This document shows positions 12,615-57,927 of a stretch of 64,000 nucleotides of DNA, piece by piece. Made by a program: the position numbers and the translations under genes. The notes beneath the pieces were generated by a model. It was not told the DNA's origin, did not search any database, and worked only from the letters and a program-made list of their open reading frames with translations. Position 1 is the stretch's first letter. Every line of letters starts with the position of its first letter. The stretch is from Parcubacteria group bacterium Gr01-1014_8 (lineage in GTDB: Bacteria > Patescibacteriota > Minisyncoccia > Phycocordibacterales > UBA2100), in assembly GCA_007376385.1 (NCBI GenBank), contig VMGC01000001.1, positions 320,001-384,000 on the forward strand. Direction: 5' to 3'.

Positions 12615-12654
12615 ACAAAGATAGAAAGATGATATAATTGCGCGGTGAGTGCCA

Positions 12655-12690
12655 TTGCCTGTCTGCGTGCAGTACGCACAGGCAGAAAAG
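12655..12690 (-). repeat. Partial inverted copy of the 3' hairpin part of intergenic repeat family R
   Basis: gcctgtctgcgtgca...cgcacaggcag matches the reverse complement of cctgcctgtgcgatgcacgcagacaggc found in the 16111..16243 and 52335..52467 copies. Confidence 0.5.
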
Positions 12691-12741
12691 ATGGCGTCTC
12701 TCTAGAAAGTCGCGTAGATTCCCCCTCCGGGGGGATTTACG

Positions 12742-12787
12742 TTTTTGTACATTGCCCGAACATTGTTCGAGTGAGGCAGTACAAAAA
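12742..12787. repeat. Nested perfect palindromes (tttttgtac/gtacaaaaa enclosing cgaacattgttcg)
   Basis: Read directly: outer 9-nt arms at 12742-12750 and 12779-12787, and an inner 13-nt palindrome at 12757-12769. The adjacent 14-nt direct repeat gatttacgtttttg occurs at 12734 and again at 12953. Confidence 0.4.
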
Positions 12788-13266
12788 GGTAGATCCGGCC
12801 GCAGCTGGGATCCCCGCGTGCGGGGAGGCGAGGCGTGCCTACGAGCGACCTAGTTTTCTTATGAGCATAGCGAATTAGAAAACTGGAAGTACTCGTAGTG
12901 GTGCACATAGTATTTTGAAGCGGCATCGCGACAAAATACTTAGTGACTCGGAGATTTACGTTTTTGGATGATACACCCCGTGAGATACAACATATATACA
13001 TTTTGCTCGTGGGTGGTTTTGTTGCTAACACCTGATTACATCGACAGTTCTAATGCGCTATCTCATGGGGTACACTATTTGCATAAGGACCCAGTGTGGA
13101 GGGCGGCGGCACTCACATAGACTTTCACTTTGGAGCTCGCACCCGCCTTCCGCATTGGGTCTTTGCAAGTTAGACATTAGATAATGGAAATTAGACAAAA
13201 GAAATTTACAAAATAATTTTTTGCTTATTAAATCTAATTTCTAACTTCCACTTTCTATATATAAAG

Positions 13267-13275
13267 TTATCCACA
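13267..13275 (+). promoter_or_regulatory. Consensus DnaA box TTATCCACA inside a ~150-bp AT-rich island
   Basis: Exact TTATCCACA lies inside 13180-13330, which is about 25% GC against about 50% GC in the flanks. Only one box was found. Confidence 0.2.
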
Positions 13276-13400
13276 GTATCGTCGAATAAAACATATTAAT
13301 CACGCAATGAGTGCAATAATAAAAAAAACGCATCTCGCGTAACTTGAATCTGCGAATGGTGCGGGTCGAATGTTTAGTCGCAGGGGCATCTAAAAAATCT

Positions 13401-13454
13401 ATGGCAAAGAAAAAGAAAGCAAAGAAAAAGGCAAAGCGATCGAAGAGACGCTAG
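13401..13454 (+). CDS. 17-codon Lys/Arg-rich micro-ORF (MAKKKKAKKKAKRSKRR) directly upstream of secA
   Basis: ATG preceded by gcagggg (SD-like) 11 nt upstream. Stop lies 6 nt before the GTG that opens the secA reading frame. Coding status unproven. Confidence 0.15.
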   Translation: MAKKKKAKKKAKRSKRR

Positions 13455-13556
13455 TCAGGCGTGCTTCGAAAGAAAAGACCCTCCATTGCGGAGGGTCTTT
13501 TCGTGCGCGACCAGAGACTGCGAAAATCAGTCATTAGTGTTAGGATGTGCCTCTGT

Positions 13557-16094
13557 ATGGCATTCTGGAAAGGGTTGTTTGGCGATACGAGTACCGCCGC
13601 TCTAAAAAGCGCGATGCCCATTGTCGCAAGTACAAATGCCCTTGAGGACGGTATTCGCGCGCTCTCTGACGATGCGCTGCGGGGTAAGACCGCAGAATTC
13701 AAATTGCGTATAGAAAAGGGCGAAACGTTGGAGGTCTTGGCGCCGGAGGCGTTTGCGGTCGTTCGTGAAGCTGCGCGCCGCACTCTCGGGCAGCGTCATT
13801 TTGATGTTCAGCTTGTGGGAGGCATGGTGTTGCACACTGGCGGCATCGCAGAGATGCGCACGGGCGAAGGAAAAACCCTAGTCGCTACATTGCCCGCATA
13901 TCTGAACGCGCTTACGGGGAGCGGTGTGCACGTCGTGACAGTCAACGATTATCTCTCCCGCCGAGACGGAGTATGGATGGGGGAGATCTATTATGCGCTC
14001 GGGATGTCAGTTGGTATTTTGAATCATGAAGCATCATACCGATACGATCCTGCACACGTGTCCAAAGATTTGATAGAGGAAGAGGATAAGGAACGTGACC
14101 AGCTAGGGAGTTTTAAAGTGATGCATGATTTTTTAGCGCCATGCACGCGTACCGAAGCGTACGCATCCGATATCACCTACGGAACCAACAACGAGTTTGG
14201 TTTCGACTATCTTCGGGACAACTTGGAATACGAGCCGGAAAAACTCCGCCAGCGGCTTCCCGATAAAGGAGGCTACAACTTCGCCATTGTCGACGAAATA
14301 GACTCCATTCTCATCGATGAAGCGCGAACACCTCTTATTATTTCTGCGCCAGTCTCGGATGCGGAGCGGCTCTATGACAGATTTGCGGCGATAGCGCGAG
14401 GGCTTGCGGCCGAAGAGGATTACACGGTTGATGAAAAACACCGCCAGATAGCTCTTACCGATGCAGGCATCGAGAAAGCCGAAAAGGCGCTCGGCGTCGA
14501 GAATATCTACACGGACGCCGGAATAAAGTTGGTGCATCACTTGGAAACAGCAGTGCGTGCTAAGGCCCTCTTCCAAAAAGATCAGGAGTATGTGGTTCGT
14601 GATGGTGAAGTCATCATTGTCGATGAATCAACTGGACGCATGCAGCCCGGCAGAAGGTGGAGTGAAGGCCTGCACCAGGCGATAGAAGCAAAGGAGGGGG
14701 TTGCAATTCAGCAAGAGTCCCGAACATTCGCTTCCATCACATTCCAAAACTACTTTCGGTTATATAAGAAGCTTGCGGGAATGACCGGAACTGCAGCAAC
14801 CTCATCGGAGGAATTCTATAAAGTATATGGTCTGAATACTGTTGCGGTGCCGACCAATGTGCCGCCAAAAAGGGAAGATCACGAGGACCTTATCGTGCAA
14901 ACCGAGAACGGCAAGATGAAAGCAATCGCCAGGCGAGTGAAAGAATTGCACGAAAAGGGCCAGCCGGTCCTTGTAGGCACTGTCTCTGTGGAAAAGAACG
15001 AGCTTCTTTCTGTTCACTTTAGGCAGGAAGGCATCCCGCACGAGCTATTGAATGCCAAGAATCACGAGAGGGAGGGAGAAATAATAGCCCAGGCCGGGCG
15101 ACGTGGTGCGGTAACCATTGCGACAAACATGGCAGGTCGAGGTGTTGACATAAAGCTCGGGGGGAATCCTGCCACGAATGAAGAGTACGAAGCCGTGAAA
15201 GAGCTTGGAGGATTGTTTGTCCTTGGAACCGAACGGCACGAGGCGCGCCGCATCGACAATCAGCTTCGGGGTCGTGCGGGGCGTCAGGGGGACCCCGGTG
15301 GGACACAGTTTTTTGTATCTTTAGAAGATTCACTCATGCGCATATTCGCCTCCGATGTCATCAAACGGGTGATGGGCACGTTCAAGATCCCTGAAGATGA
15401 ACCCATCTTCAATTCCATGATAACGAGGTCGCTTGAAAAGGCCCAGACTCGCATCGAAGAGTTGAACTTTGACGCTCGAAAGCATGTTTTGTCGTACGAT
15501 GATGTGTTGAATATTCAGCGCCAGTCGATCTACGCACGTCGTAGAGCGCTTCTGACGGGAGGGAATGACGCAGTTGACGATGAACTCGCGCGCATTGTCG
15601 AGCCCGATTCCGATGTTATGCGCGCATTGGATGAGCGGAAAAAAGAAATGGGGGAGATGTTCTACAGAGTCTCGAGGCGATTTCTCTTACAAACGGTAGA
15701 CTTTTTGTGGGTGGAGCATCTTGAAGCAATGGAGTACTTGCGCTCAAGTGTGAACTTGCGCGCATATGGGCAGCGAGATCCGCTTGTCGAATATAAGAAG
15801 GAAGGCTTGAAATTGTTCCAGACCATGGAAGGTTCCTACGACGCCAATGTTGTCCAGTCGCTCCCGAACGTCCTACAGGCACAGAAAGATGGTGCTGTGC
15901 GTCCCGCAGCTTCCAAAAGTTTCTTTGCTAAGAGTGTAAGCGCAATTACAAACACCAAGAAAGGCCATGATGAGAAGAAATACGAGCGAAACGAAAAAGT
16001 AACGATCACAAATGGTACAGAAACAAAAGAGATGAAATTTAAGAAAGCAGAGCCGCTTCTGGCAGGAGGGGAGTGGAAGATCGTACAGAAATAG
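13557..16094 (+). CDS. secA: Preprotein translocase ATPase SecA
   Basis: Start chosen at MAFWKGLFGD (13557), which is SecA-like; the tracked ORF extends upstream to the GTG at 13461. DEAD-motor motifs present: MRTGEGKTLVATLPAYLNAL, VVTVNDYLSRRD, DEIDSILIDEARTPLIIS and TNMAGRGVDI. Lacks the C-terminal Zn-finger tail. Confidence 0.9.
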   Translation: MAFWKGLFGDTSTAALKSAMPIVASTNALEDGIRALSDDALRGKTAEFKLRIEKGETLEVLAPEAFAVVREAARRTLGQRHFDVQLVGGMVLHTGGIAEMRTGEGKTLVATLPAYLNALTGSGVHVVTVNDYLSRRDGVWMGEIYYALGMSVGILNHEASYRYDPAHVSKDLIEEEDKERDQLGSFKVMHDFLAPCTRTEAYASDITYGTNNEFGFDYLRDNLEYEPEKLRQRLPDKGGYNFAIVDEIDSILIDEARTPLIISAPVSDAERLYDRFAAIARGLAAEEDYTVDEKHRQIALTDAGIEKAEKALGVENIYTDAGIKLVHHLETAVRAKALFQKDQEYVVRDGEVIIVDESTGRMQPGRRWSEGLHQAIEAKEGVAIQQESRTFASITFQNYFRLYKKLAGMTGTAATSSEEFYKVYGLNTVAVPTNVPPKREDHEDLIVQTENGKMKAIARRVKELHEKGQPVLVGTVSVEKNELLSVHFRQEGIPHELLNAKNHEREGEIIAQAGRRGAVTIATNMAGRGVDIKLGGNPATNEEYEAVKELGGLFVLGTERHEARRIDNQLRGRAGRQGDPGGTQFFVSLEDSLMRIFASDVIKRVMGTFKIPEDEPIFNSMITRSLEKAQTRIEELNFDARKHVLSYDDVLNIQRQSIYARRRALLTGGNDAVDDELARIVEPDSDVMRALDERKKEMGEMFYRVSRRFLLQTVDFLWVEHLEAMEYLRSSVNLRAYGQRDPLVEYKKEGLKLFQTMEGSYDANVVQSLPNVLQAQKDGAVRPAASKSFFAKSVSAITNTKKGHDEKKYERNEKVTITNGTETKEMKFKKAEPLLAGGEWKIVQK

Positions 16095-16110
16095 TCCCGC
16101 CGCTTAAATT

Positions 16111-16243
16111 TATCTGTCGAGGATAGCAAGCGAAATGCGAAAGCGCAGGTTTCGCATTTCCGAGCGACACAGACAGCAAAGGTTCAAAGCCCCGCGGCTT
16201 GCCTGCCTGTGCGATGCACGCAGACAGGCCGCGGAATTTGGGA
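16111..16243 (+). repeat. Intergenic repeat element R, copy A (133 nt), immediately 3' of secA
   Basis: Identical over 133 nt to 52335..52467 apart from 1 nt. Contains a perfect 11-bp hairpin gaaatgcgaaa/tttcgcatttc and the second hairpin gcctgcctgtgcg/cacgcagacaggc. Followed by ccgaggaacctttat, which precedes the copy at 52335. Confidence 0.75.
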
Positions 16244-16387
16244 CCGAGGAACCTTTATATTCCGTAAGAAAATAGTGTATGCCCCATGAGATAGATCATC
16301 TAGATCGGTGATGCATATAGTTCAGTAGTAACATATGAGATTCCTGAAAAAGTGGCGTGAATTTATCTCACGGGGTATGCTTCCGGC

Positions 16388-17833
16388 ATGTCATACAAGG
16401 CAACGATAGGGCTTGAAATTCATGCAGAATTGAAGACAAGTACAAAAATGTTTTGCTCGTCTCAGAACAACGCCGACGAAACAAGAGCGAATGTCCACGT
16501 CTGCCCCATTTGTTTGGCGCATCCGGGTACGCTGCCTGTCATCAATAGGGAAGCGGTGCGGCAGGTGCTCCGCGTCGGGGTTGCGCTTAAAGGTACGTTG
16601 GCAGATTACACGGAATTTGACCGCAAGAATTATTTTTATCCAGATCTGCCTAAGGGCTACCAATTATCACAGTATGAATTTCCCCTTGTGTCAGGCGGAA
16701 GTTTAAATGGAGTAGACATCACGCGAGTTCACTTAGAAGAGGACACAGCGAGTTCAATTCATGACGAGATGACAGGGGAAACCCTTATTGATTACAATCG
16801 CGCGGGGGTGCCTTTGATGGAACTCGTTACGGAGCCAGTGATCCATAGCGCAAAGGAAGCAGGTGATTTTGGCCGAGAATTACAATTGCTCTTACGTTAT
16901 CTAGGTGCATCAGACGCTGACATGGAAAAAGGGCGCATGCGACTTGAAGCAAATATTTCTGTCTCAAATTCCGACGAACTAGGCACGAAGGTCGAAATAA
17001 AGAATATTAACTCTTTCCGGGCTATGGAGCGCGCGGTTGAACACGAGATAGCTAGGCAGACAGATATCCTCGATATGGGGCAAAAAATAGCTCAAGAGAC
17101 TCGCGGATGGGATGACTCTAAACAAGCGACGTTCAGCCAGCGTGTGAAGGAGGGTAGTGCGGATTATCGTTACTTTCCAGATCCAGATCTGCCGAGCCTC
17201 AAACTTTCGCAGATCGAGGAATTCTCAGAAGATGCGCTTAAAAAGACCCTTCCCGAGTTGCCCAGTGAGAGACGCCAGCGGTATATACATGCAGGCATTA
17301 AAGCTGCGGATGCTGAGCAATTTGCTGCATACCCACGCCTGGCAGACTTTATGGACAAAGTGATAGTTGGGAACATCAAGGATGAGGCATTTATACAACG
17401 TGCGACTAACTACATAGTGAACGACCTCGTGAGCATTATCCGAGACATCAATAAACGAGATACGGATTTGCGAGGCGAGATACCTATCTCCTCTATGAAC
17501 TTTACAAAGATTATGCGTATGCTCGGTGATAGAAGGATCTCGTCGAGGGGTGCGAAGGACCTGCTATCCTTGGTCATAAAGGAAGGCCGCGATCCGGAAA
17601 CGGTTGCGTCGGAGCGCGGTCTTCTTATAGATGCGGCCGGACTGGACGTCGAATCTGCGGTTCACAATGTTCTCACAAGGAATAAAGAAGTAGTTGCGGA
17701 CTATTTGTCCGGGAAGCAGAATGCGCTTCAATATTTGATCGGACAATGCATGAAAGAGCTCAAAGGTGCAGTTGAACCGACGGAGCTAAGAGTGATATTG
17801 ATGCAAACAATCTCATCTCGTAGCGCTACTTAA
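16388..17833 (+). CDS. gatB: Asp-tRNA(Asn)/Glu-tRNA(Gln) amidotransferase subunit B
   Basis: MSYKATIGLEIHAELKT...VHVCPICLAHPGTLPVIN...KNYFYPDLPKGYQ are canonical GatB motifs; 481 aa. Confidence 0.9.
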   Translation: MSYKATIGLEIHAELKTSTKMFCSSQNNADETRANVHVCPICLAHPGTLPVINREAVRQVLRVGVALKGTLADYTEFDRKNYFYPDLPKGYQLSQYEFPLVSGGSLNGVDITRVHLEEDTASSIHDEMTGETLIDYNRAGVPLMELVTEPVIHSAKEAGDFGRELQLLLRYLGASDADMEKGRMRLEANISVSNSDELGTKVEIKNINSFRAMERAVEHEIARQTDILDMGQKIAQETRGWDDSKQATFSQRVKEGSADYRYFPDPDLPSLKLSQIEEFSEDALKKTLPELPSERRQRYIHAGIKAADAEQFAAYPRLADFMDKVIVGNIKDEAFIQRATNYIVNDLVSIIRDINKRDTDLRGEIPISSMNFTKIMRMLGDRRISSRGAKDLLSLVIKEGRDPETVASERGLLIDAAGLDVESAVHNVLTRNKEVVADYLSGKQNALQYLIGQCMKELKGAVEPTELRVILMQTISSRSAT

Positions 17834-20597: not shown

Positions 20598-23500
20598 ATG
20601 TCTGATGAAATCTTTTTTGATGGTGTTCGATATATTTCGGCGCAGGAAGCTGCGACGTCGTTAGGTTTTTCGCGAGATTACATTGCGAGGCTTGCTCGAA
20701 TAGGCAAAGTCAAAGGCCGACAAATAGGAAAGAATTGGTACGTCGAATTTCGCTCAGTTCAAACGTTTGTCCTTGAGCAGGAGTACTTGCAGGGAAAGCG
20801 TAGAAAGGAGCTTGCGGAGAAGCGAGTCTTCGAATACCGCAAGCAGGTTGGCAGTACGGACGAGAGATCGAGCGATATTGTTGCCCCAGTTATTTTTGCC
20901 GATGCTGTATCAGTTTCTGCAAAGCAAAACAAGAGACATGCGGCTATTAAGGCGATGCTCGCGCGTGCAATGTCTCGCCGCGCCGACTTGAAGGTTCTGG
21001 CGCATGCGAACCGCGTTCATACGCCCTCGTTTTTTTCTGTGACGCCTGCCGTTGAGTTTCTGCACAAACTCACTGCTCTCATTACAGCGTTTGTACTGAC
21101 TTTTGGCGCGTATGCTTTTGTTAATGCGGACTACGCTCATTTTGCACTCGATTCTATACGCTCTGCTTCACGGAGTGTTGTTGCTGTCCCGAAATTGGTC
21201 TGGGGAGGTGATGCAGCACGTTGGGGTTCAGATACAGGTGCGCAACTCGCAGCTGTTGCATTGCAGACAGCTCAGTCGGCAAACCAAGCTGAATCATCCA
21301 TTACTTCATTCATGTCATCTGCCGCAAGAAATTTCAACCTTCACGTTAATGACTTATTGTACGGAGTTATTTATCCGAACATTCCTGGCATGGGTTCTTT
21401 CGCGTTCTCATCTGCGCGTGGCCGCGTCGATATTCAAATTGTTCCGTATCGCAGCGATGCGCCTGCAGCAAGATCGGCACCTGCTCCCTTGATCCGAACA
21501 GCAGTGTCAGCTCCAACAACTGTCATCAATCAACCGATAGTGGAACGCATCAGAGAGACGAAGAGCGTTGTCACGCTCGGCGGGATCAGTGAAGAGCTCC
21601 TAGCATCCAAGTTGCTTGAGCTCGACACCAAACTTTCTTCTCGCATGTTGTCGCTCACCTCTTCTAACGCAACGAGCATTACCCAGGTATATAACACCGT
21701 CGGCCAAATGGGTCGTATTGAACATTTAGATGATCTTGATCTTACAAACCCAACGATTACGAGAGGCACGTTGACGAACGTGAGGATCTCATCTCTTTCA
21801 GCCCCTCTCACAATCTCTGACGGCGGCACTGGAACCTCTAGCGCTCCTACGTATGGAAAAGTTCTCTTAGGAAATTCGAGCGGTGCGTATGATCTCGTCG
21901 CGACCTCATCGCTGGGTGTCGGCGGAACACCCGGCGGCTCGAGCACGCAGGTGCAATTTAACGATAGCGGTGCTTTCGGTGCGGATTCCACATTTACTTT
22001 CAACAGCACCAGCAATCTTCTTTCTTTCTCGAGCGCGTCATCTTCGTTGCAGTCTATTTTTGATCGCCTGTATGTCGGCGGAACGGCGACGACGACCATC
22101 TTCGGCTCCGCGACTTCCACCTTCGGGGCTGGTATCGAGACAACTGCCTTGAACGTTACTTCGAATAGCGCGAGCAGCACATTCGCAAACGGTATCTCGC
22201 TCTCTGCCGGGTGTTTCCGCGACGCGAGCGGGGCATGTCTGCAGAGCGCGACATTTGCGTATCTCTTCCCATCGGACGCAACCACAACCAAACTCACGTT
22301 CTCTGGCGGTTTGATCTCGCTCGCTTCAACGACGATCGGCAATGGCACACAAGCGGGAGGACTCACGATCTCCGGCGGCGCGACGACGACAGGGAATCTC
22401 TTGGTGCAGGGCAATGCGACGACGACAAACTTGGCAGTGTCTGGCACCGCATCGTCATCTGCCCTCGTCGCATCAAATTCATTTACGTTCTCGAATATAA
22501 CAGGCTTCCTCAAGGCGACCGCCGGCGTTGTCGCAACGGCCGCCATCAATCTCGCCTCCGACATCACCGGCATTCTTCCTGCTGGAAATGGCGGCACGGG
22601 ATGGGGCAATATCGCAGCGAACACGATCGTGCTTGGGAACGGCACGGGAGCTATCGCAACGACGAGCGCCGGCACCAACGGCCAGATGCTCGCGCTTGTT
22701 TCGGGAGTGCCGACGTGGACCGCGACGACCACATTCTCAGCCCCACTTGTATTTTTCGCAGGCAATGTCTCGATCGCAGCCTCGAATGGCAGCACAGACG
22801 GCTATCTCACTTCCGCTGACTGGACGCTCTTCAACAACAAAGTCTCTTCTTCTTCGCTCTCGACATTCACGGCAGCCTTCAAAGACTGGAACATTACGAC
22901 AAACACATTCGGCCAGTCCTCTCTCGCTCCAACAACAACGCAAAACATCGCAGTCACAGGCGTCGGCACATCCACATTCGCCGGAGGATTAGAAGCGTGG
23001 AGACAAATAGGCGCTCCATACTTCAACGCTACAAGTTCATCCGCAACGTCAACCTTCGCTGGTGGATTAAATGTGCTCGCCATTAACCAAACTGGTTCTG
23101 CGACATCGACGTTTGCGAATGGTTTGCAGCTTTCGAATGGTTGTATCCGATTACCCTCAGGGAGCTGCTTGGCATCTGTCGCAAATTCTTCGATTGATGA
23201 TCTTAGCGACGTCACTATCACCGCCGCCGCATACGGCGACCTTTTGATGCACAACGGGACTGCATGGGTTGATACTGCCACTAGTTCGCTTGGAATATTC
23301 ATTTCAGACACCGTTGGGACACTTGCCGTGGGGAGAGGAGGCACGGGGCTATCATCGACACCAACGTACGGCCAACTGCTCGTCGGAAATGCTTCGAGCG
23401 GCTACACGCTTTCCGCGACATCAACGCTCGGCATCGCGCTCTCTGACACCATAGGAACGCTGGCGGCGACACGGGGTGGTACAGGACTCTCATCCATCAC

Positions 23501-26500
23501 CAACAACCAACTTCTTCTTGGCGGCGCAGGAAACACGGTCACACAGATCGCCACTTCTTCGCTAAACCTTCTCACGACCGACATAATCGAAGGTTCAAGG
23601 CTTTTCTATACGGACAACCGTGTAGACACATACATACATGGGTCAACCACAATTCCAAAGACATACACAGCAAACACGTTCACGGGGGCGAACACATTCA
23701 ACAGTACTTTTACTCTCGGCACGCTCAATGGTCCCTTGCACGCAAACGCCGGCGTCGTCGGTGCGACGACATCTGTTCTCGCGATCTACGGCGGAACCGG
23801 GCAGACCTCGTATTCAACGGGTGACATTCTCTACGCATCCGGCGCAGCCGCACTCTCGAAACTCGGGATCGGCGGTGCGGGAGAGGTTCTAAAAATATCG
23901 GGAGGTGTCCCGACGTGGGGAACTGATTTGACTTCCGGAGGTGGCGCGGATGGCACATGGTCGACGACTACCTCACAAGTCTCTGGCACGTTGATCAATT
24001 ACCCTAACAATGCATCCGACATCGTTGCCATCGGCTCCACGGCGACGACATCTGCGGAGTACTGGTTTGACCCGAATACGACGATTGCCTATCTTTCAGG
24101 AAAAGTTGGCATCAGCACCACCTCCCCCTACTCAAAGTTAACGTTGTGGGGGAGCGCCTCACTATTTGAGGCAGTGAACACATCTTCGACAACGATCTTT
24201 TCAATAGGCCAATCAGGCGCGACAACAACGAATCTCGGAATTTCGGGAATAGCAAGTTCCCTGCTCAAAACAACATCTACCGGAGGAGTGGTTGCTGCGA
24301 TACCCGACACCGATTACCTCAATACCGCAAGTTCGATCGAATTACTTGGCGACGTCGCCGCGATGACGGAGAATTACGGCGATCTCTTGTATTGGAATGG
24401 CTCCGCGTGGGCTGATCTTGCGACGTCATCGCTTGGGATTGCGATCAGTGACACCACGGGAACACTTGCAGTTGCACGAGGCGGCACTGGTCAAACCACA
24501 TTCTCCTCCTCGCAACTTCTCTACGGAAACGGAACCAACGCGCTTTCGTCTGTCGCAACCTCCTCACTCTCCGCAGGAACCGGTGTCACGTTCTCTGGAA
24601 CTGCCGGCTCTCTCGTTGGAGGCACTGCACTCACCATCAATACACCGTGGACCATCTCCGGAAACAACATCTACAACAACAACATTGCAAATGCCGCCAT
24701 CGGCACATCAACTCCCTACGCCACCACCACGATCTGGGGTAACACTGCTTCAAAGATATTTGAAGTCGTTGCAAACGCTTCATCCACCGTATTCTCTGTT
24801 GCACAAAGTGGAGCTACTACAACCAACCTCGGCATTACTGGCGTCACCAATTCGCTCTTGAAGACCACATCAACCGGTGGAGTCGTTGCAGCGGTCGCAG
24901 GCACGGATTACGCGACACTGTCACAAACATTTGGAAAAGCGTGGGAGATCGACGGTAACGGCTTTACCGGATTCCTTGCACCGACAACAACGCAGAAAGT
25001 GTGGATCGGGCAGGCGTCGTCGACGCTTCTATCGGTGAATGGCCCTGCATACTTTGGCTCAACCGCAACCTCCTCATTCTCAACCGCCGGCGTCCTCACG
25101 CTTGCCACCGATCTCGCAGTCACCGAAGGAGGCACCGGAGCTTCCACGCTCACCGGCCTTCTCCAAGGAAACGGCACGTCGGCGTTCACCGCCATCACTG
25201 ATTCATCCACGGTGGGACAGATACTCCGTGTGACTGGTGCATCAACATACGCCTGGGGAGCACTGAACCTTGCAGACACTGACGCCATCACCGGAACGCT
25301 TCCCATCTCCAACGGAGGCACCAACAACACCACCTACTCCACCAACGCGCTCCTCTACTTTGACGGAACATCCATCACTGCTACTTCCACCAGACCCCTC
25401 TACGTCGGCGCTATCAATGCCACCACAACAGCCACCTCCACTTTTGCAGGAGGCATCTCTGTTCTCAACTTCGCACAGACAGGAACAGCAACAAGCACGC
25501 TCGCAAACGGGCTCACCTTAACCGGTGGCTGTGTCATGGTGAACGGAAACTGCATCTCACCCGTTGGGAACTCCTCCATCGAAGATTTGAACGACGTTGC
25601 TGCGATGACGGAGAACTATGGAGACCTTCTTGGATGGAACGGCAGCACGTGGACTGACTTTGCCACCACCTCACTCTTCACCGGTTCCAACGGGCAGATG
25701 CTTGCATACGCGAATGGCGGGTGGACGGGAGTTGCAACAACAACAGCCGGCACTGGTCTCACATACACCGGCTCTGCGTTCAATGTTGACCTTGGTACCT
25801 CTATTAGCGCAGCTGAGATCGCAGACGGCGATCACGGCGACTTCACATACACCAGCGGTGTTGCAGCCATCGATGCAAACGCCGTCACCCTCGGCACCGA
25901 CACAACAGGGAACTACGTTGCAACACTCGCAGATTCAGGCGGAGGAACACTCACCATCTCCAACTCAGGCAGCGAGACAGCGGCAGTGACAGCCTCCCTC
26001 AACCTTGGCAACGCCAACATCTGGACTGGCAAGCAGAACTTCTTTGGTTCTGCATCGTCGACGCTGTTCTCAGCGAACTGGCTCAAAGTCGGTCAAACAG
26101 CATCAACCACATTCGATTCCGCTGGCAACGCAACCATCGGCGGCACCTTGAACGTCACCGGTCAAACTACACTTGCCACTTCACTCACTGGATTACTCAA
26201 AGCAACCGCAGGAGTTGTCTCCTCTGCAACAGAAGGCACTGACTACCTCTCCAATGCACTCCGCGATTGGTCAGTACAAGGCAACGGATACCTTGCACCA
26301 ACGACAACGAGAGGAATCATCGTTGTTGCATCATCCACCATCGGCGCGGGAGGACAAGCGACGGGGCTCACCATTTCAGGAGGCGCGACGACGACGGGGA
26401 ATGCGTATTTTGCAGGGAATGTGGGTGTTGGGACAGCTGCACCAAGTCAAAAATTGCAAGTTGTTAACGGCGCTATTGATATCAACACCGACGACCAGTT

Positions 26501-29500
26501 CTTGTACTTCGGTAGCGGGGACGCCGGCATCAGGGAAAGCGGTGCCAATTTGAAATTTGAGACGTATACGGGCGCTGCACTCACCGAAAAAATGAGAATT
26601 ACTGGCGCAGGCAACGTCGGCATCGGGACCACCACTCCCGCAACCCTCCTCTCCATCGCCGGCACGAGCGGCCTCTTTGCCTCCACGACCGCCACCTCCA
26701 CCTTCCAAGGCGGCGGGATTAACTTGCTCACGGCGGCGGGGAATACGGGATGCTTTGCGGTGAATGGGACGTGTCTTTCCAATACCGCTTCCGGCATCGT
26801 CGGAAGCGGCACCACCGGACAATTTCCGTACTATGCCGCCAACGGCACGACTTTGACGGCGACCTCGACACTTTTCGTCTCGACCGCGAGCAATGTTGGG
26901 ATCGGTGCCACCTCTCCCGCAGCAAAGTTAGACGTCGAAGGTTCCGGTGCGGTCTTGACCGACATCATGGTAGGCAACTCACAGGCCAATGCAAACTTCG
27001 GTATTTCCGCGGCAGGAGTTCCCCACCTTTGGACGAACAATGCCTCGTGGCCGCTTGTGCTCGGTGTCGGTGGCGCAGAGAAAATGAGAGTGCACACGGA
27101 TGGAAACGTAGGGATCGGAGCAGGTGCAACGGGTCCCGGGGCACTCCTCACGGTTGACTCTGGTGCAGCGTCTCTCACGGACATCTTGGTCGGCAACTCG
27201 CAAGCGAACGCGAATTTCGGAATCTCCGCAGCGGGCGTAGCCCATCTGTGGTCAAATAATTCAAGTTGGCCTCTTGCGTTCGGCATTGGAGCCGCGGAAA
27301 ATATGCGAATCCACACGAACGGCAACGTGGGGCTCGGGAACACCTCCCCCTCCTACAAACTCGACGTCGCAGGGTTCATCAACACCGACCAATTCTCCGG
27401 CTACAAGCAGAACGGCACGACCATTCTCTATTCATCTTCGACGCTTGCCACGATGTTCGGCGGCTACCAGGCCGGCAATGGTCAAGTGCAATCAGGAACC
27501 GGACTCTACAATACCGCGTTTGGCTATCAGGCGCTCTTGAGCGCCACGTCGTCTAGCAGAAGCACAGCGGTCGGCTTTTCAGCGCTCGCAAGTCAGGCGA
27601 ATGCCAATGGCAACGATGCGCGTAATACCGCAGTTGGTTCCCAAGCGCTCGGCGGCACAACGTACGGTTACTACAACACAGCTGTCGGCTCTGATGCTCT
27701 CGCTGCCAACACGACCGGATACTTCAACAGCGCATTTGGCCAGGGCGCGCTCACTGGCAATACGACCGGCCGCGATAACATTGCAATTGGCTACAATTCC
27801 GTGAGTCAAAGTACAGCCGCCCTCGAAAATATAGGTATCGGCAACTCCTCGCTTTCAGGAGCGTCGCTCACGGGGGCAGACAACATCGCTATCGGTCGGC
27901 AGGCTGGGAGCGCCATGTCGAGCGGGAGTTACAACATACTGATTGGCCAATATCTCTACAACAGCGGCACCGTCTTTACTGGCTCAAACAACATCATCAT
28001 CGGGCGCGACATCGGCTCGACCGCATCTCCCTTGGTTTCGACGACAACAAGCAACGCGCTCAACATCGGCAACTTGATTTTCGCGACCAGTCTCGGCACG
28101 GCGGACACTCTTTCGACGGGTAATGTGGGTATTGGAACAGCGGCACCGAATTATCAACTTTCAAACAACTCCGCGAGTAATAACCTGGATTCGGGTTCCA
28201 CGGGGCTCTCGACCGCAAGTAGTTTCAACTGGGCGAACAACGGCTCCGGCTACGGTGCAGGATTGTATAACGCAAGCGCCAATTCGGATGCAAACGGGCT
28301 GTTGGTAAAAATTCGCGGTACGGCCTCTACCAACAAAATTCTCTCGCTCGACACGGGCACGACGCAAGCCGGCGCGGGAACAAATGTGCTGACGGTATTA
28401 GGAAGCGGCAACGTCGGCATTGGGACGACGAGTCCGCGCAGCGCCCTCTATTTCCAGGCGAACAGTAGCGATCCATCGTTAACATCATGGACAGGCATAG
28501 GGACGATGCGCGCTAGTACTGGTGTAGAACTTGCGATGGGTGCAGACGATACGACACCTTTCGGCGCGTGGCTGCAAACGAAAGACAGCACAAATGGCGG
28601 TACATCCTATCCACTGCTCCTCAATCCTCTCGGCGGCAACGTTGGCATCGGGACGACTACGCCTCAAACGGCGTTGCATGTAAACGGTATTCTCGCGGCA
28701 ACGCCAAGCTACGGCTTTTACTGGTACAACGGGGCAACATTCAAAGGCGCACTCAAGCATAACTCATCCAACGATAACCTTGAGATATACACCGCCTCTG
28801 ATGGCAGCACGCCGCGGCTCACAGTCCAAAGTTCTTCCGGCAACGTCGGTATCGGGACGACCAGTCCCGTGTCGATACTTGCTGTTGCTGGTGCCAATCC
28901 TGTACTTACCCTCAATCAAACGAGTAGCGGTAATGTTTCTGGCTTAAAGATAACGAATGGAGTAAATACGCTAGGCACATTTACAGTAGCAATAGATACA
29001 GGCGAGGTCAGGATAGGTGGTACGTCTAGCGGCGGTTATTATGATACTTTCTACGCCGATGGTTCGGAAAGGATGAGGATTACAGCAGCAGGCAACGTCG
29101 GCATCGGGACGACGACGCCGCAGTGGCTTTTGAATCCGACTTCGGCAAGCGCATCACAACTTGCCCTTTCGGCGGGGGCGGGCATCGCGCAATGGACGTT
29201 TAGGAATGCAGGCGGGAATTTGTATCTCTCAACAACTACCGTTGCAGGAACCGCAACGACATCGATAAGCGCGCTTGAGATTGCGGGCGGAGGATTAGGA
29301 ACGACAACCGTGAGAGGGCTAAACATCAGCGCTGGCGCAACATCAACGTCTAATGTGGGCTTCTCACTCACGAGCGGATGCTTTGCAACGCCCGCGGGCT
29401 GTATCTCGGGCGTTGGCGATTCTTCCATCGAAGCATTGAACGACGTTGCTGCGATGACGAAAAACTTCGGTGACTTACTGTATTGGAATGGCACAACATG

Positions 29501-32500
29501 GACTGATCTAGCAACGTCGTCGCTTGCGGTAAATTTCTCCGACCTCATTGGTTCAGCGACAGATGCACAGGTTACGAATGCGCTCACAATTTCCGGCGGC
29601 GTGATTTCGGGGACGAACACGGTGTCGGGTACGTGGAATACGACAAACACGCTTACCATCGGGAACGGCGGCGACCGCATCGACGTCAATTCGAGCGGAT
29701 GGGATGTGACGGACAGCGTGATTTCAGGCGCAACCTATCAAGGCAACACGATTGGCACCACCTACGGAGGCACAAATGCGACAGGTTTCAGCAGCCATGC
29801 GCTTCTTGCATTTAACGGTACGAGCATCGTCGCAACGTCTACTATCGGCTTTCAGTCATTTAATGCGACATCAACCACTGCGACGTCGACCATTGCTGGC
29901 GGCCTTGCAGTCGAGACCTCCGGCCTCGTGTACGACTACTCGACCAACCGCGTCGGCATTGGGACGGCGAGCCCTTCCAACAAATTACATATTGCATCAT
30001 CCGCGAATGACTCAACGCTTTTCATACAGCAAACGTCTGGCACACAGCGAGCTGATATCCGGATCGACAACGACGGCGGCTATATGCTTATCGGCCGCGA
30101 AAACAGTGCTGGCGGATCACTTGCGGTCGGTTCGACCGGCTATTTTGGCGTCATGAATGTCAACAATGCCTACGGTCTGCAATTTGGTACCAACAACACC
30201 GTCCGAGCGACGATCGACTCCTCCGGCAACGTCGGCATCGGGACGACGAGTCCAGCGACTTCGCTTTCAGTATCGGGAAGCGGGTACCTCACTGGCGCGC
30301 TTGGCGTAGGCGCGGTCGCGACGGGCTTCACCAACCTTCTCGTCAATGACAACTCAAACACTGCGCACAATAACGATGAGGGTATTGTTGTGAAAAATAC
30401 AAACACTGGCAGTTCTGCCGGCGCTAGCATCAATCTTCGAAACGACGGCACATATCATGGATTCATGCAGATGAATTCTGGGGCAAACACATCATTGGCG
30501 GGAGCAAATAGTTTCAACATCGGTGCTGAGCACAACATTAATTTCGGATTCATCACCAATGATGCGCTTCAGATGACATTGAATACCACCGGTCTCGGCA
30601 TCGGGAACACCTCCCCCTCCTACAAACTCGATGTCGCGGGGTTCATCAACACCGACCAATTCTCCGGCTACAAGCAGGCGGGGAATACTATACTGTATGC
30701 GTCGAGCACGAATGCCACGGTATTTGGTGGACAAGGCGCAGGAAGCGCGATGCAAACGTCTGGAACCGGTGCGTACAACACCGCGTTTGGGTACGGTGCC
30801 CTTACTACAGCGACATCGTCTAGTAGAAGCACTGCAATTGGATTTAATGCACTCGCCAACCAAGCGAACAGTAACGGCAACGACGCACGCAACACGGCCG
30901 TCGGTTCCGACTCTTTGGCGGCAACTACGTACGGCTACTACAACGTCGGCGTCGGCGCCTCGGCGCTCACCGCCAACACGACAGGCGCTTTCAACGTGGC
31001 ACTTGGTGTCGGGGCTTTGCAGACGGCAACATCCACGAACAACGTGACTGCCATCGGCTACAACGCGCTCGGCGCTATGATTTGTTGCGGCCCGGCAGGG
31101 ACGACGCCGGCAAATGTCGTGGTAGGCCACCAAGTCGCTCGTCAAGCGACGACTGCCTACGGTATTACAGGAATCGGGTATGGCGCCTTGGATTCGCTCA
31201 CGACCGGACACGACATCGTGGCACTTGGATCGCAGGCAGGGCATATGGTCACGACTGGCACTAACAGTATATTCCTTGGCGATCTCTCCGGCTTCAAAGA
31301 CAGTGCCGGTGCGAACACCGCCATCACGGGCGACAACAATATCATCATCGGCAATAACCAGCTCATGATCCCGAACGCCGCCGGCTCCAATCAACTCAAC
31401 ATCGGCAACCTCATCTTCGGCACCAGCCTCTCAACCGGCGCGACAGTTTCGACCGGCAACGTCGGCATTGGGACGACGAGCCCACGTTCGATTCTCCACG
31501 CTGTGGCCGGTGCTTCGGGAGTTTTGCCCAACGCAGGCACGACCTTCACTATGGAGAGCAACACGGCCAACTACTTGAGCATGCTCACAGCGAGCAACGC
31601 CGCAAACGGAATTCTCTTTGGTACGCCGACGAGCGCAATCGATGCCGGCATTCTCTACAACAGCAACGGTTCGGCACGAGATTTGCAGTTCCGCACCGGC
31701 GTCAACAACACGCGGATGACGATTGATTCTACCGGCAACGTCGGCATCGGGACGACGACGCCGTTTCGCAAACTTTCTATCACGGATGCAGTATCGACCG
31801 CACAGCAAGCGATCGCGTACGACTCGACGCGCTGGACTGACCTCCTTACAGACTCTGTTGGGGATCTCACCATCAATCCGCAAGGCGACGATGTGTTCTT
31901 GAATGCGGACAATCTTTGGGTGTGTACCGGCGGCTCGTGTCCGAGCGGGACGCCAGCAGGGACGGGTAATTTGATCGTTGAAACGAAATTGGGCGTGGCC
32001 AGTTCGACACCGTTCGCGACGCTCGGTGTGAAGGGTTCTGCTGCATCGACGGCATATACGTTCATGACAACCAACAGTTCCGATTCTCCGACGTTCAACA
32101 TCCAAGATAACGGCAATGTGGGTATTGGTACCACGACGCCCACGAAACAATTTTCCATCTCGAGTCTCCTCTATGTCGGTGCAGGCGGTGCAACAGGAAT
32201 GGGAACAGCGACATCGACTTTCCAAGGTGACATCAAGATAATTGGTAAACTTGATGTCGGTACGATTGACCCGGTCTATACAATAGACGGCACGAAGTAT
32301 GCGACGTATGGTCATTCAACCGTTGGTATCAAAGAAGAGGTAACGGCAAAACTGGCAGTCAACGAGTATGACGAAGCTCGAGATTTGTATCGAACAACAA
32401 TTCGTTTCGATGAGTTGGAAAAGGGAAGCGACCTTTGGCTTTTCTATGAGATCACTCGATTCGGACTTGAATGGGAGCATCTCGTCGTGAACTTGACGCC

Positions 32501-32753
32501 GGCATTCGACGGCCGCGTGTTCTACGAAGAAGATATCGTCGAGAACTCTCTGACAATATACGCCGACAAGTCCGGCTTTGTTTCTGCGCGGCTCATCGCG
32601 GACAGATTCGACGCAGAAACGTGGCCGAACATTCGTCCTGACCAGGACGGAAATACCGAAGGCACGCACAATATAACTTCGAAATTGCCGGGAGGGGTGC
32701 TCCGAGCGGCAGCTACAGCAACCGAAGCCGTCTCATCGTGGTTCAATGAATAA
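20598..32753 (+). CDS. Giant (4051 aa) repetitive Gly/Thr/Ser/Ala/Asn-rich surface fibre protein. N-terminal cytoplasmic HTH_17-like motif and one TM helix (N-in), then about 3880 aa of extracellular beta-rich repeats
   Basis: Single uninterrupted 12,156-nt ORF. N-terminus YISAQEAATSLGFSRDYIARLARIGKVKGRQIGKNWYV. TM helix LTALITAFVLTFGAYAFV at about aa 163-182. GNVGIGTTSP-x-x-KL recurs more than 10 times. The module DVAAMTENYGDLL-WNG--W-DLATSSLGI-ISDT-GTLA--RGGTG occurs 4 times. NTA-G--AL / NTTG beta-roll-like repeats. Two segments have near-identical DNA (about 27340 and about 30604; NTSPSYKLDVAGFINTDQFSGYKQ). Confidence 0.8.
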   Translation: MSDEIFFDGVRYISAQEAATSLGFSRDYIARLARIGKVKGRQIGKNWYVEFRSVQTFVLEQEYLQGKRRKELAEKRVFEYRKQVGSTDERSSDIVAPVIFADAVSVSAKQNKRHAAIKAMLARAMSRRADLKVLAHANRVHTPSFFSVTPAVEFLHKLTALITAFVLTFGAYAFVNADYAHFALDSIRSASRSVVAVPKLVWGGDAARWGSDTGAQLAAVALQTAQSANQAESSITSFMSSAARNFNLHVNDLLYGVIYPNIPGMGSFAFSSARGRVDIQIVPYRSDAPAARSAPAPLIRTAVSAPTTVINQPIVERIRETKSVVTLGGISEELLASKLLELDTKLSSRMLSLTSSNATSITQVYNTVGQMGRIEHLDDLDLTNPTITRGTLTNVRISSLSAPLTISDGGTGTSSAPTYGKVLLGNSSGAYDLVATSSLGVGGTPGGSSTQVQFNDSGAFGADSTFTFNSTSNLLSFSSASSSLQSIFDRLYVGGTATTTIFGSATSTFGAGIETTALNVTSNSASSTFANGISLSAGCFRDASGACLQSATFAYLFPSDATTTKLTFSGGLISLASTTIGNGTQAGGLTISGGATTTGNLLVQGNATTTNLAVSGTASSSALVASNSFTFSNITGFLKATAGVVATAAINLASDITGILPAGNGGTGWGNIAANTIVLGNGTGAIATTSAGTNGQMLALVSGVPTWTATTTFSAPLVFFAGNVSIAASNGSTDGYLTSADWTLFNNKVSSSSLSTFTAAFKDWNITTNTFGQSSLAPTTTQNIAVTGVGTSTFAGGLEAWRQIGAPYFNATSSSATSTFAGGLNVLAINQTGSATSTFANGLQLSNGCIRLPSGSCLASVANSSIDDLSDVTITAAAYGDLLMHNGTAWVDTATSSLGIFISDTVGTLAVGRGGTGLSSTPTYGQLLVGNASSGYTLSATSTLGIALSDTIGTLAATRGGTGLSSITNNQLLLGGAGNTVTQIATSSLNLLTTDIIEGSRLFYTDNRVDTYIHGSTTIPKTYTANTFTGANTFNSTFTLGTLNGPLHANAGVVGATTSVLAIYGGTGQTSYSTGDILYASGAAALSKLGIGGAGEVLKISGGVPTWGTDLTSGGGADGTWSTTTSQVSGTLINYPNNASDIVAIGSTATTSAEYWFDPNTTIAYLSGKVGISTTSPYSKLTLWGSASLFEAVNTSSTTIFSIGQSGATTTNLGISGIASSLLKTTSTGGVVAAIPDTDYLNTASSIELLGDVAAMTENYGDLLYWNGSAWADLATSSLGIAISDTTGTLAVARGGTGQTTFSSSQLLYGNGTNALSSVATSSLSAGTGVTFSGTAGSLVGGTALTINTPWTISGNNIYNNNIANAAIGTSTPYATTTIWGNTASKIFEVVANASSTVFSVAQSGATTTNLGITGVTNSLLKTTSTGGVVAAVAGTDYATLSQTFGKAWEIDGNGFTGFLAPTTTQKVWIGQASSTLLSVNGPAYFGSTATSSFSTAGVLTLATDLAVTEGGTGASTLTGLLQGNGTSAFTAITDSSTVGQILRVTGASTYAWGALNLADTDAITGTLPISNGGTNNTTYSTNALLYFDGTSITATSTRPLYVGAINATTTATSTFAGGISVLNFAQTGTATSTLANGLTLTGGCVMVNGNCISPVGNSSIEDLNDVAAMTENYGDLLGWNGSTWTDFATTSLFTGSNGQMLAYANGGWTGVATTTAGTGLTYTGSAFNVDLGTSISAAEIADGDHGDFTYTSGVAAIDANAVTLGTDTTGNYVATLADSGGGTLTISNSGSETAAVTASLNLGNANIWTGKQNFFGSASSTLFSANWLKVGQTASTTFDSAGNATIGGTLNVTGQTTLATSLTGLLKATAGVVSSATEGTDYLSNALRDWSVQGNGYLAPTTTRGIIVVASSTIGAGGQATGLTISGGATTTGNAYFAGNVGVGTAAPSQKLQVVNGAIDINTDDQFLYFGSGDAGIRESGANLKFETYTGAALTEKMRITGAGNVGIGTTTPATLLSIAGTSGLFASTTATSTFQGGGINLLTAAGNTGCFAVNGTCLSNTASGIVGSGTTGQFPYYAANGTTLTATSTLFVSTASNVGIGATSPAAKLDVEGSGAVLTDIMVGNSQANANFGISAAGVPHLWTNNASWPLVLGVGGAEKMRVHTDGNVGIGAGATGPGALLTVDSGAASLTDILVGNSQANANFGISAAGVAHLWSNNSSWPLAFGIGAAENMRIHTNGNVGLGNTSPSYKLDVAGFINTDQFSGYKQNGTTILYSSSTLATMFGGYQAGNGQVQSGTGLYNTAFGYQALLSATSSSRSTAVGFSALASQANANGNDARNTAVGSQALGGTTYGYYNTAVGSDALAANTTGYFNSAFGQGALTGNTTGRDNIAIGYNSVSQSTAALENIGIGNSSLSGASLTGADNIAIGRQAGSAMSSGSYNILIGQYLYNSGTVFTGSNNIIIGRDIGSTASPLVSTTTSNALNIGNLIFATSLGTADTLSTGNVGIGTAAPNYQLSNNSASNNLDSGSTGLSTASSFNWANNGSGYGAGLYNASANSDANGLLVKIRGTASTNKILSLDTGTTQAGAGTNVLTVLGSGNVGIGTTSPRSALYFQANSSDPSLTSWTGIGTMRASTGVELAMGADDTTPFGAWLQTKDSTNGGTSYPLLLNPLGGNVGIGTTTPQTALHVNGILAATPSYGFYWYNGATFKGALKHNSSNDNLEIYTASDGSTPRLTVQSSSGNVGIGTTSPVSILAVAGANPVLTLNQTSSGNVSGLKITNGVNTLGTFTVAIDTGEVRIGGTSSGGYYDTFYADGSERMRITAAGNVGIGTTTPQWLLNPTSASASQLALSAGAGIAQWTFRNAGGNLYLSTTTVAGTATTSISALEIAGGGLGTTTVRGLNISAGATSTSNVGFSLTSGCFATPAGCISGVGDSSIEALNDVAAMTKNFGDLLYWNGTTWTDLATSSLAVNFSDLIGSATDAQVTNALTISGGVISGTNTVSGTWNTTNTLTIGNGGDRIDVNSSGWDVTDSVISGATYQGNTIGTTYGGTNATGFSSHALLAFNGTSIVATSTIGFQSFNATSTTATSTIAGGLAVETSGLVYDYSTNRVGIGTASPSNKLHIASSANDSTLFIQQTSGTQRADIRIDNDGGYMLIGRENSAGGSLAVGSTGYFGVMNVNNAYGLQFGTNNTVRATIDSSGNVGIGTTSPATSLSVSGSGYLTGALGVGAVATGFTNLLVNDNSNTAHNNDEGIVVKNTNTGSSAGASINLRNDGTYHGFMQMNSGANTSLAGANSFNIGAEHNINFGFITNDALQMTLNTTGLGIGNTSPSYKLDVAGFINTDQFSGYKQAGNTILYASSTNATVFGGQGAGSAMQTSGTGAYNTAFGYGALTTATSSSRSTAIGFNALANQANSNGNDARNTAVGSDSLAATTYGYYNVGVGASALTANTTGAFNVALGVGALQTATSTNNVTAIGYNALGAMICCGPAGTTPANVVVGHQVARQATTAYGITGIGYGALDSLTTGHDIVALGSQAGHMVTTGTNSIFLGDLSGFKDSAGANTAITGDNNIIIGNNQLMIPNAAGSNQLNIGNLIFGTSLSTGATVSTGNVGIGTTSPRSILHAVAGASGVLPNAGTTFTMESNTANYLSMLTASNAANGILFGTPTSAIDAGILYNSNGSARDLQFRTGVNNTRMTIDSTGNVGIGTTTPFRKLSITDAVSTAQQAIAYDSTRWTDLLTDSVGDLTINPQGDDVFLNADNLWVCTGGSCPSGTPAGTGNLIVETKLGVASSTPFATLGVKGSAASTAYTFMTTNSSDSPTFNIQDNGNVGIGTTTPTKQFSISSLLYVGAGGATGMGTATSTFQGDIKIIGKLDVGTIDPVYTIDGTKYATYGHSTVGIKEEVTAKLAVNEYDEARDLYRTTIRFDELEKGSDLWLFYEITRFGLEWEHLVVNLTPAFDGRVFYEEDIVENSLTIYADKSGFVSARLIADRFDAETWPNIRPDQDGNTEGTHNITSKLPGGVLRAAATATEAVSSWFNE

Positions 32754-47320: not shown

Positions 47321-47342
47321 CGAGTAATTATAGCTCGTAGTA

Positions 47343-47450: not shown

Positions 47451-47571
47451 TGCAAAAGTGCTCTTTTGCGTTTCTCTCGCAACGCTCGCAAATAAAGCGC
47501 ATGAGGGCGACCCATTTATGCGTATCGTTCTTCGCATCGTATTTGCTTGACATAGGCGTGCAGAATATGAT

Positions 47572-57891: not shown

Positions 57892-57927
57892 CCTCGTGAG
57901 AAAAACACATGAACGTCGGCGCAACAT

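Follow-up and report, generated by a model that had tools for sequence, protein, structure and literature searches.

Short dispersed elements with conserved 12-bp inverted ends around secA in a Parcubacteria genome: a probable mobile family that shares its ends with a small GIY-YIG nuclease gene

The DNA analysed here (the window) is a stretch of 64,000 nucleotides from Parcubacteria group bacterium Gr01-1014_8 (contig VMGC01000001.1, positions 320,001 to 384,000, forward strand). It carries secA (start codon ATG 13557; 845 aa), followed by gatB, and, farther downstream, rpiB and rpe. Short repeat blocks that are probably the ends of small mobile elements lie on both sides of secA. Four such blocks, two on each side and inverted relative to the other pair, had been described in an earlier note, and their positions are confirmed: on the plus strand, ACCCCGTGAGATA (12975-12987) and TATCTCATGGGGT (13059-13071) are found upstream of secA, and GCCCCATGAGATA (16281-16293) and TATCTCACGGGGT (16364-16376) downstream, with an arm-to-arm spacing of 84 nt upstream and 83 nt downstream. 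Allowing up to two mismatches, the 13-mer occurs seven times in the window against 1.68 expected, and seven occurrences were reached in none of 100 shuffled sequences. Two features had been missed. Upstream as well as downstream of secA, the second block of a pair is the inverted repeat of the first, so that each pair constitutes one element, and a third, degenerate unit is found at 57891-57986, between rpiB and rpe.

The three copies (Table 1) share a plan of 12-bp inverted arms, CCCCRTGAGATA and TATCTCAYGGGG, around an unconserved interior of about 71 bp, with a 4-bp direct repeat on each side. The minimum-energy fold of each window copy contains the arm stem, and the three interiors cannot be aligned with one another in either orientation. 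Because the interiors of copies 1 and 2 are unrelated, these copies represent separate insertions and not a duplication. Pairwise alignment bears out the similarity between the two sides of secA, matching 13039-13089 with 16313-16261 in inverted orientation at 80% identity over 54 nt (E 2e-5), a region that spans one arm and 19 nt beyond the element. The same local alignment recovers the exact 13-mer at 12975-87 and 16364-76, together with a third shared hairpin (12657-12690 versus 16229-16198, 85% over 34 nt). The 19 nt outside the element at 13071-13089 (TACACTATTTGCATAAGGA; TACACTATTT.C.TA.GGA) are identical to the reverse complement of 16261-16279 at 16 positions, a similarity that suggests that copies 1 and 2 both adjoin related promoter-like sequences.

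Table 1. Positions of the three element copies, the putative promoter features and two other repeats in the window.
Feature	Position	Strand	Description
Copy 1	12972-13074	none	TACA 12972-12975; left arm CCCCGTGAGATA 12976-12987; 71-bp interior; right arm TATCTCATGGGG 13059-13070; TACA 13071-13074
Copy 2	16278-16379	none	TATG 16278-16281; left arm CCCCATGAGATA 16282-16293; 70-bp interior; right arm TATCTCACGGGG 16364-16375; TATG 16376-16379; just before the gatB ATG
Copy 3 (degenerate)	57888-57989	none	TTGA 57888-57891; left arm CCTCGTGAGAAA 57892-57903; interior with the present rpe ATG 57928; right arm TTTCTCATGGGG 57974-57985; TTGA 57986-57989
-10-like hexamer TACACT	13071-13076	+	From the right flank of copy 1; predicted transcript start ~13083
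TATGCT-N6-gatB ATG (16388)	16376-16390	+	Putative -10 box and leaderless-start arrangement typical of CPR (candidate phyla radiation) copies
Structured repeat R (147 nt)	16109-16255		Fills most of the remaining secA-gatB spacer; not part of the element
Hairpin module	12657-12690		Also in repeat R (16198-16229) and at 52432-52463; different repeat family

The blocks are best explained, with good though incomplete confidence, as the ends of two independent copies of a family of non-autonomous mobile elements, of which copy 3 would be an older member. The element, about 95 bp long (about 103 bp with its 4-bp flanking repeats) and without coding capacity, would be a miniature non-autonomous transposon, a reading based on the conserved 12-bp ends, the variable interior, the 4-bp direct repeats and the presence/absence differences between relatives. 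The earlier note had offered remnants of one element inserted twice as an alternative to an inversion of secA, and this alternative is borne out: the copies have their own inverted ends and 4-bp flanking direct repeats and belong to a dispersed family.

One genome per species of bacteria and archaea was scanned with the pattern CCCCRTGAGATA-N55-85-TATCTCAYGGGG, for which we calculate a chance expectation below 1 (22 fixed and two two-fold positions, 31 gap lengths, 596 Gb). More than 115 loci, at the least, contain the two-arm pattern, with 130 elements among the matches listed. By record title, the matches listed belong to Patescibacteria/CPR, Planctomycetota, Verrucomicrobiota, Omnitrophota, Bacteroidota/Ignavibacteria, KSB1 and a few others, and the CPR lineages among them are Kaiserbacteria, Saccharibacteria, Nomurabacteria, Yonathbacteria and Paceibacterota. 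Total element length peaks at 95-96 bp, and most of the 130 listed copies measure 93-99 bp. Their interiors share no sequence, and a structured interior was rejected because structure was not above that of shuffled controls (median z near 0). Within single genomes, near-identical interiors are found at sites with unrelated flanks (two copies in locus L067; L037, L076 and L016), and tandem arrays of the element have a 4-nt linker in common. No hits were obtained in the viral contigs scanned, and a phage origin was rejected on this ground.

One arm position is a purine or its pyrimidine partner, and in the 130 listed elements (L004-L118 and the window) it reads G..C in 52, G..T in 42, A..C in 36 and A..T in none. 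The T variant never occurs in both arms, and it is found in 46% of promoter-side arms versus 24%. In the ATP-synthase operon of an Omnitrophota genome (L011, 2138-4325), element arms occur as short intergenic hairpins with loops of about 10-30 nt; this shows that spacings of the arms are not confined to about 71 bp, with classes near 20, 47-50 and 83 nt.

The conserved signal does not stop at the arms, running four bases outward from each (TWTA|CCCC). Among the CPR copies, 16 non-palindromic flank pairs are identical direct 4-mers (including TGTA/TGTA, TACA/TACA, TCTA/TCTA and TAGA/TAGA), compared with an average of 1.3 and at most 6 in 5000 permutations, and no flank pair is identical in inverted orientation. 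The four flanking bases of the CPR copies are direct repeats and not an extension of the palindrome. All three window copies obey the same rule (TACA...TACA, TATG...TATG and TTGA...TTGA). The flanks of Planctomycetota and Verrucomicrobiota copies read TTYA...TRAA and are therefore inverted.

Comparison with relatives reveals both empty and filled sites. When copy 3 and one TTGA are removed from the window, the resulting sequence is gATGAACAAAATTGAgatcatccc, and rpe then begins MNKIEIIPTVVPASLDDV, overlapping the rpiB stop. The nearest Rpe homologue (P0002; 76% identical) has exactly this predicted N-terminus, and both its contig (L119) and a second one (L121) have an empty site, with a 14-nt rpiB/rpe overlap and no element. 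A further contig (L120) is filled at the same rpiB/rpe point, with TTGA flanks and the same arm variant as in the window (GAGAAA/TTTCTC). Its interior aligns with that of copy 3 with a score of 7, compared with -10.3 ± 4.0 for shuffled sequences, none of 1000 of which reached 7. In the window, the present rpe start is the ATG inside copy 3, which gives Rpe a 17-aa N-terminal extension in which the right arm is translated (..FSHGV-EIIPT).

At the second site, a relative whose GatB is 71% identical (L128) has secA and gatB only 24 nt apart, with no element between them, and its spacer reads TTGAGA-N17-TAGAGT-N6-ATG. The 293-nt secA-gatB spacer of the window therefore consists of inserted repeats, namely copy 2 and the 147-nt repeat R, which is likewise absent from L128. 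As regards an invertible promoter, copy 2 is identical in two samples (L001 and L002), and no invertase was seen. N-terminal extensions in GatB homologues were considered as traces of the element and rejected, as none had arm-encoded peptides. Copy 1 has a counterpart, likewise flanked by TACA, at the orthologous place in a Kaiserbacteria genome (L007). The two interiors align in neither orientation, and the idea that the element is flipped in L007 relative to the window was rejected on that account.

Most CPR copies are found in a promoter-like context. Among 74 arms with the outer flank TNNANT, the flank consensus is TAtAcT, and an internal TTG precedes it by exactly 17 bp (T.55, T.58, G.42). 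Enrichment of A, T and G is seen 7-9 nt past the hexamer (+12 to +14). On the far side of the same elements, the other 4-bp repeat has a TTG of its own at a distance of 17 bp upstream (T.43, T.54, G.38), with G at -14 (.62). A TAnnnT hexamer abuts one side of 48 of the 65 CPR elements. A start codon that opens at least 80 codons is found 5-8 nt past the hexamer in 26 of the 65, and in none of the 26 copies from the Planctomycetes-Verrucomicrobia-Chlamydiae (PVC) and Fibrobacteres-Chlorobi-Bacteroidetes (FCB) groups. In L013 and L036, the far side reads TTGCGT or TTGCAT, N17, TACA|CC and the gene side GGGG|TACACT-N10-ATG; homologous genes in L064 and L112 have ordinary promoters and no element.

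This arrangement suggests how the element may enter a promoter. In CPR, the element is found in TATA-like tetranucleotides, which in most cases open a sigma-70-type -10 hexamer; on the simplest reading, it splits a pre-existing hexamer after the fourth base. The 4-bp repeat would let the gene-proximal flank remain a -10 box. The 12 promoter-proximal bases of the spacer, among them G at -14 and -13, would come from the arm (ending GGGG), and the internal TTG 17 bp upstream would serve as a new -35. The former -35 would be stranded past the far arm, beside a crippled TATACC. Such promoter restoration could explain how cells survive an insertion directly ahead of an essential gene such as gatB.

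In the window, copy 2 is part of the predicted gatB promoter: its right arm ends 12 nt upstream of the gatB ATG, and relatives have TAGAGT-N6-ATG or TACAGT-N6-ATG at the same place. The TACACT hexamer of copy 1 is followed by a strongly folding 82-nt hairpin, with no start codon or open reading frame (ORF). For the window copies, promoter activity is a prediction from the family as a whole. The sequence GATTTACGTTTTTG occurs at 12734-12747 and 12953-12966, both times just upstream of a TACAYT hexamer (TACATT at 12748, and the TACA of copy 1), and may be a local promoter-associated motif.

Outside CPR, the same arms are also found 264-282 bp apart, around an ORF of 83-87 aa (a unit of about 280 bp). 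A GIY-YIG ORF lies between the arms in L072, L115, L122, L123 and L125. The L072 unit reads TTCA|CCCCGTGAGATA-11 nt-ATG...AAT TAT CTC ACG GGG TAA, from which it follows that the right arm encodes the codons Y-L-T-G and that the stop is supplied by the TRAA flank. The 86-aa ORF consists of a single GIY-YIG domain only (Pfam PF01541, E 5e-17), and the nearest solved structures are those of small UPF0213 GIY-YIG proteins (E about 1e-6). The clade comprises 1543 clusters at E <1e-5, all of about 86 aa and 67-86% identical, and the wider family, as recovered by profile search, comprises 3097 representatives at E up to 1e-10. The C-terminus ..KNRLKNYLTG is kept in 24 of 26 sampled homologues.

The arms of the short and the full-length units are connected by their variants. 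Variants alter jointly in both arms at about half of the variant positions, and one of them, CCCCGTTAGAGA / TCTCTAACGGGG, is common to two short copies (L069 and L076) and a full-length copy (L105) in which the protein ends FLSLTG. Full-length units are found inside tyrosine-recombinase genes in four unrelated genomes, at differing positions (L072 2296-2650, L122, L123/L124 and L125/L126); three of these four insertions were found by fetching members of the nuclease clade by protein identity. The interrupted genes of L122, L123 and L125 have the integron-integrase motifs DPRS..RRHH, HTLRHSFATHLL and GYDIRTVQELLGH..TTMIYTHV. Other copies of the element are located in RHS/YD-repeat genes.

It is an evenly balanced question whether this nuclease, or a relative acting in trans, may recognise the arms and mobilise the short copies. 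The arms are shared and co-varying, and there is an analogy with Ssn proteins, single-domain GIY-YIG enzymes (CDD cd10448) that act as site-specific single-stranded-DNA nucleases (Chenal et al. 2025, PMC11893778). The pairing of REP elements with RAYT transposases would be a further parallel. The chemistry of movement is inferred. A broader proposal, which we consider somewhat more apt to fail than to hold, is that these units represent an undescribed kind of very small transposon: its sole gene would be the 86-aa GIY-YIG gene, whose last four codons double as a terminal repeat, it would be present in at least six phyla, and its ORF-less derivatives of about 95 bp would insert into CPR -10 boxes and rebuild the promoter. 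If this is true, GIY-YIG (Ssn-like) nucleases would be a new class of mobility enzyme, and the element would be a natural promoter-preserving insertion.

Several observations weigh against the interpretation above. The scan demanded perfect arms, so the apparent conservation of the arms is inflated. Filled and empty rpe sites do not track Rpe similarity groups, a mismatch that requires either repeated insertion at one point or precise loss. Copies from Planctomycetota and Verrucomicrobiota have no visible duplication outside their inverted flanks, and the full-length copies within integrase genes consist of arm...arm+TRAA without a duplication; the insertion mechanism may therefore vary by lineage, or the 4-bp repeat may not arise from a staggered cut. 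In the window, copies 1 and 2 have weak -35 matches, and a strict sigma-70 scan recovers neither. The 64-kb window has no GIY-YIG gene of this clade, and the CPR loci (at most 8 kb each) contain only one divergent GIY-YIG gene, in L112, with different repeats. We also know of no case in which a GIY-YIG nuclease performs strand transfer. The lack of such a gene in the CPR data, the lack of a precedent for strand transfer and the differing non-CPR flanks weaken the case for mobilisation by the nuclease in particular. No transposase or integrase recurs as a neighbour among the 825 flanking ORFs of the CPR loci. A conventional insertion sequence between long-range arm pairs was rejected, since only two weak pairs were found, around ordinary genes. 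A likeness of the arms to piggyBac/IS1380 ends with a 4-bp duplication was considered and rejected; no such transposase was found.

An explanation without mobility would be that the arms are operator sites of a conserved transcription factor and that the unit is a vertically inherited promoter module. One arm does lie in the promoter spacer against the -10 box in the 48 CPR copies mentioned above, the arm-to-arm distance of 83-84 bp corresponds to about eight helical turns, and the arms are intact at the orthologous window/L007 site where the interior has diverged past alignment. Such a module is difficult to reconcile with flanking 4-mers that match directly and not as part of a palindrome, with orthologous sites that are both empty and filled, or with a second -35 stranded outside the unit. 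Copies also lie within the coding regions of rpe, integrase and RHS genes, tandem arrays share 4 nt, identical interiors occur at unrelated sites, and the non-CPR arms, without promoter context, yet bound a nuclease gene. We consider this explanation improbable.

Slightly less probable still is that the arms pair in a transcript, forming the hairpin of a small RNA, a processing site or a terminator/insulator, and that their conservation reflects RNA function. The arms could form a 12-16-bp stem, which is present in the minimum-energy structure of each window copy; where one arm has a variant, the other has the matching change at about half of the positions, and the purine/pyrimidine position is compatible with G-C or G-T and never A-T in the 130 listed elements. 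Matched variants are equally expected of paired transposon ends or of a DNA hairpin, however, and the strand compatible with G-U pairing agrees with the direction of the flanking gene in 15 cases and disagrees in 16. The gene-side arm of the CPR copies lies upstream of the predicted transcript start and hence outside that transcript. The interiors have no excess structure, the folding energies of whole copies are ordinary (z -0.5 to -2.2), and no Rfam family matches the arms, even at E up to 10. Both the regulator and the RNA explanation account for less than a mobile element does.

The least probable alternative is that the inverted copies serve as a substrate for inversion of secA, as the earlier note had suggested, or that they mobilise the secA segment as a composite unit. 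In its favour, the two outermost arms (12976-87 and 16364-75) are correctly inverted around 3.4 kb containing secA, as in a composite transposon. Identity between the copies, however, is exact over just 12-13 bp, or 80% over 54 nt, which is probably too little for homologous recombination. Both of the independent contigs available, L003 and L128, have secA oriented to its neighbours as in the window. The order secA then gatB is ancestral, and secA is essential and present as a single copy. With copy 2 in the predicted gatB promoter and no element between secA and gatB in L128, the bracketing of secA is incidental.

Other repeats and hairpins are found in the same region. Repeat R has a second, direct copy at 52343-52489 and a related inverted copy at 47341-47496. 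The two direct copies flank a 36-kb stretch, and their first 135 nt are identical save for one base. In a metagenome contig from the same population (L003), secA and R are joined to 52478 onward via 223 nt that have no counterpart in the window, and the 36-kb stretch is carried by a 36,210-bp contig (L001) with a junction from 52347 to 16259. These junctions at R represent either structural variation or assembly ambiguity. The 36-kb stretch was rejected as an integrated mobile element, as no integrase was found and the secA-gatB order is ancestral.

The 82-nt hairpin just downstream of copy 1 (13084-13165, plus strand) has a predicted RNA fold of -50.3 kcal/mol (z -7.5). Its loop, GCACTCACATAGAyTTT..TTGGAGCTCGCACCCG, is kept in Kaiserbacteria L007, where the stem differs by compensatory changes. 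It has no Rfam match and could be a small RNA or a leader element of secA. The whole region 12615-13556, between a Wzy_C/TPR gene and secA, comprises about 940 nt without a convincing ORF and contains a chain of further long hairpins (12711-12818, 12839-12898, 12904-12945 and 13171-13257). A mini-ORF in 13403-13507 encodes MAKKKKAKKKAKRSKRR, and a strong hairpin (13467-13507) comes next, immediately upstream of the secA start. The A+T-rich part contains one perfect DnaA box (13267-13275). The box prompted the idea of a replication origin, which was rejected because DnaA boxes are no more numerous than expected by chance and no switch is seen in the GC skew. No Rfam family reaches its gathering score anywhere in the 64 kb, which also contain no recognised tRNA or tmRNA gene. 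Downstream, a 4051-aa ORF (20598-32753) contains many internal repeats (GNVGIGTTTP-like units), and a relative (L127) has a 4145-aa homologue beside gatB, encoded on the other strand.

Within the window the finding is a modest one: the repeats around secA are incidental dispersed copies and not a switch. For the family, the proposed insertion mode suggests how a selfish element could adjoin essential genes in compact genomes without silencing them, the -10 being regenerated and the -35 supplied. The copies also provide dozens of aligned promoter examples, many apparently leaderless, for CPR bacteria, a group with few mapped transcription signals. Being strict in sequence, the 12-bp arms make an easy annotation marker and may help to explain assembly breaks and spurious N-terminal extensions, such as that of rpe here.

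Among known systems, integron attC sites were rejected, as their core sites (RYYYAAC ... GTTRRRY) are absent, the ends here being CCCCRTGAGATA / TATCTCAYGGGG with TWTA or TRAA flanks; no integrase is found near the window copies, and the full-length units lie inside integrase genes and are not cassettes beside them. Some insertion sequences form hybrid promoters via an outward-facing -35 in their end. The element resembles these in that its end would give the -35 and the spacer while the flank gives the -10. It differs in that it would lie within the -10 hexamer, which the duplication regenerates, so that a promoter is restored and not newly created.

Repetitive extragenic palindromic (REP) sequences and the hairpin-forming REPINs, with their REP-associated tyrosine transposases (RAYTs; IS200/IS605-like), are similar in consisting of dispersed palindromic units, some in arrays, with an enzyme gene flanked by repeats, and both systems are thought to act on DNA hairpins. 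REP sequences are lineage-specific, whereas the arms described here are conserved across phyla and the CPR copies have 4-bp flanking repeats. No HUH/Y1 protein is found here, the sole gene between the arms being that of the GIY-YIG protein.

Bacterial miniature inverted-repeat transposable elements (MITEs) are a closer match. They too are short, with terminal inverted repeats, no coding capacity and short flanking direct repeats, occur in several copies per genome, differ in presence or absence between relatives and have a longer, gene-bearing relative with the same ends. The family described here has terminal inverted repeats and empty sites at rpiB/rpe, and a target-site duplication is seen in CPR but not in PVC copies. 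It departs from MITEs in that interiors are mostly unrelated between copies while the ends are identical across phyla, in the missing target duplication of non-CPR copies, and in that the gene-bearing relative encodes an 86-aa GIY-YIG protein in place of a transposase of the DDE, serine, tyrosine or HUH type.

Among published systems, the Ssn nucleases with their hairpin repeats come closest, and the study of them was the only relevant result of literature searches for the arm 12-mers, CPR MITEs and GIY-YIG transposons. Hairpin repeats (NTS/SRM, the latter for Ssn-related motif) border the Ssn genes and are present, besides, in hundreds of copies per genome, and the repeat-gene-repeat layout was likened by the authors to an insertion sequence and to the REP/RAYT pairing (PMC11893778). 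In both systems, an inverted-repeat motif stands on either side of a very small gene for a single-domain GIY-YIG protein and is also scattered in many ORF-less copies, and in both the repeat variants pair with nuclease variants. This layout is present in the five loci with a GIY-YIG ORF between the arms and absent from the window itself. The SRM consensus, HGTCWY..YYVSBRH..WNVSBRG..RNCYNB, matches none of the 130 listed elements and nothing in the window by regular-expression scan. Ssn repeats are hairpins of 20-50 nt, whereas the halves here are usually split by about 71 bp or by a whole gene, and one of them encodes the end of the nuclease. The Ssn study does not report 4-bp direct repeats at the flanks, empty sites or a targeting of promoters, and had raised just the resemblance to an insertion sequence (PMC11893778). 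The flanks, empty sites and shared interiors described here add sequence-level evidence of movement for repeats tied to small GIY-YIG nucleases.

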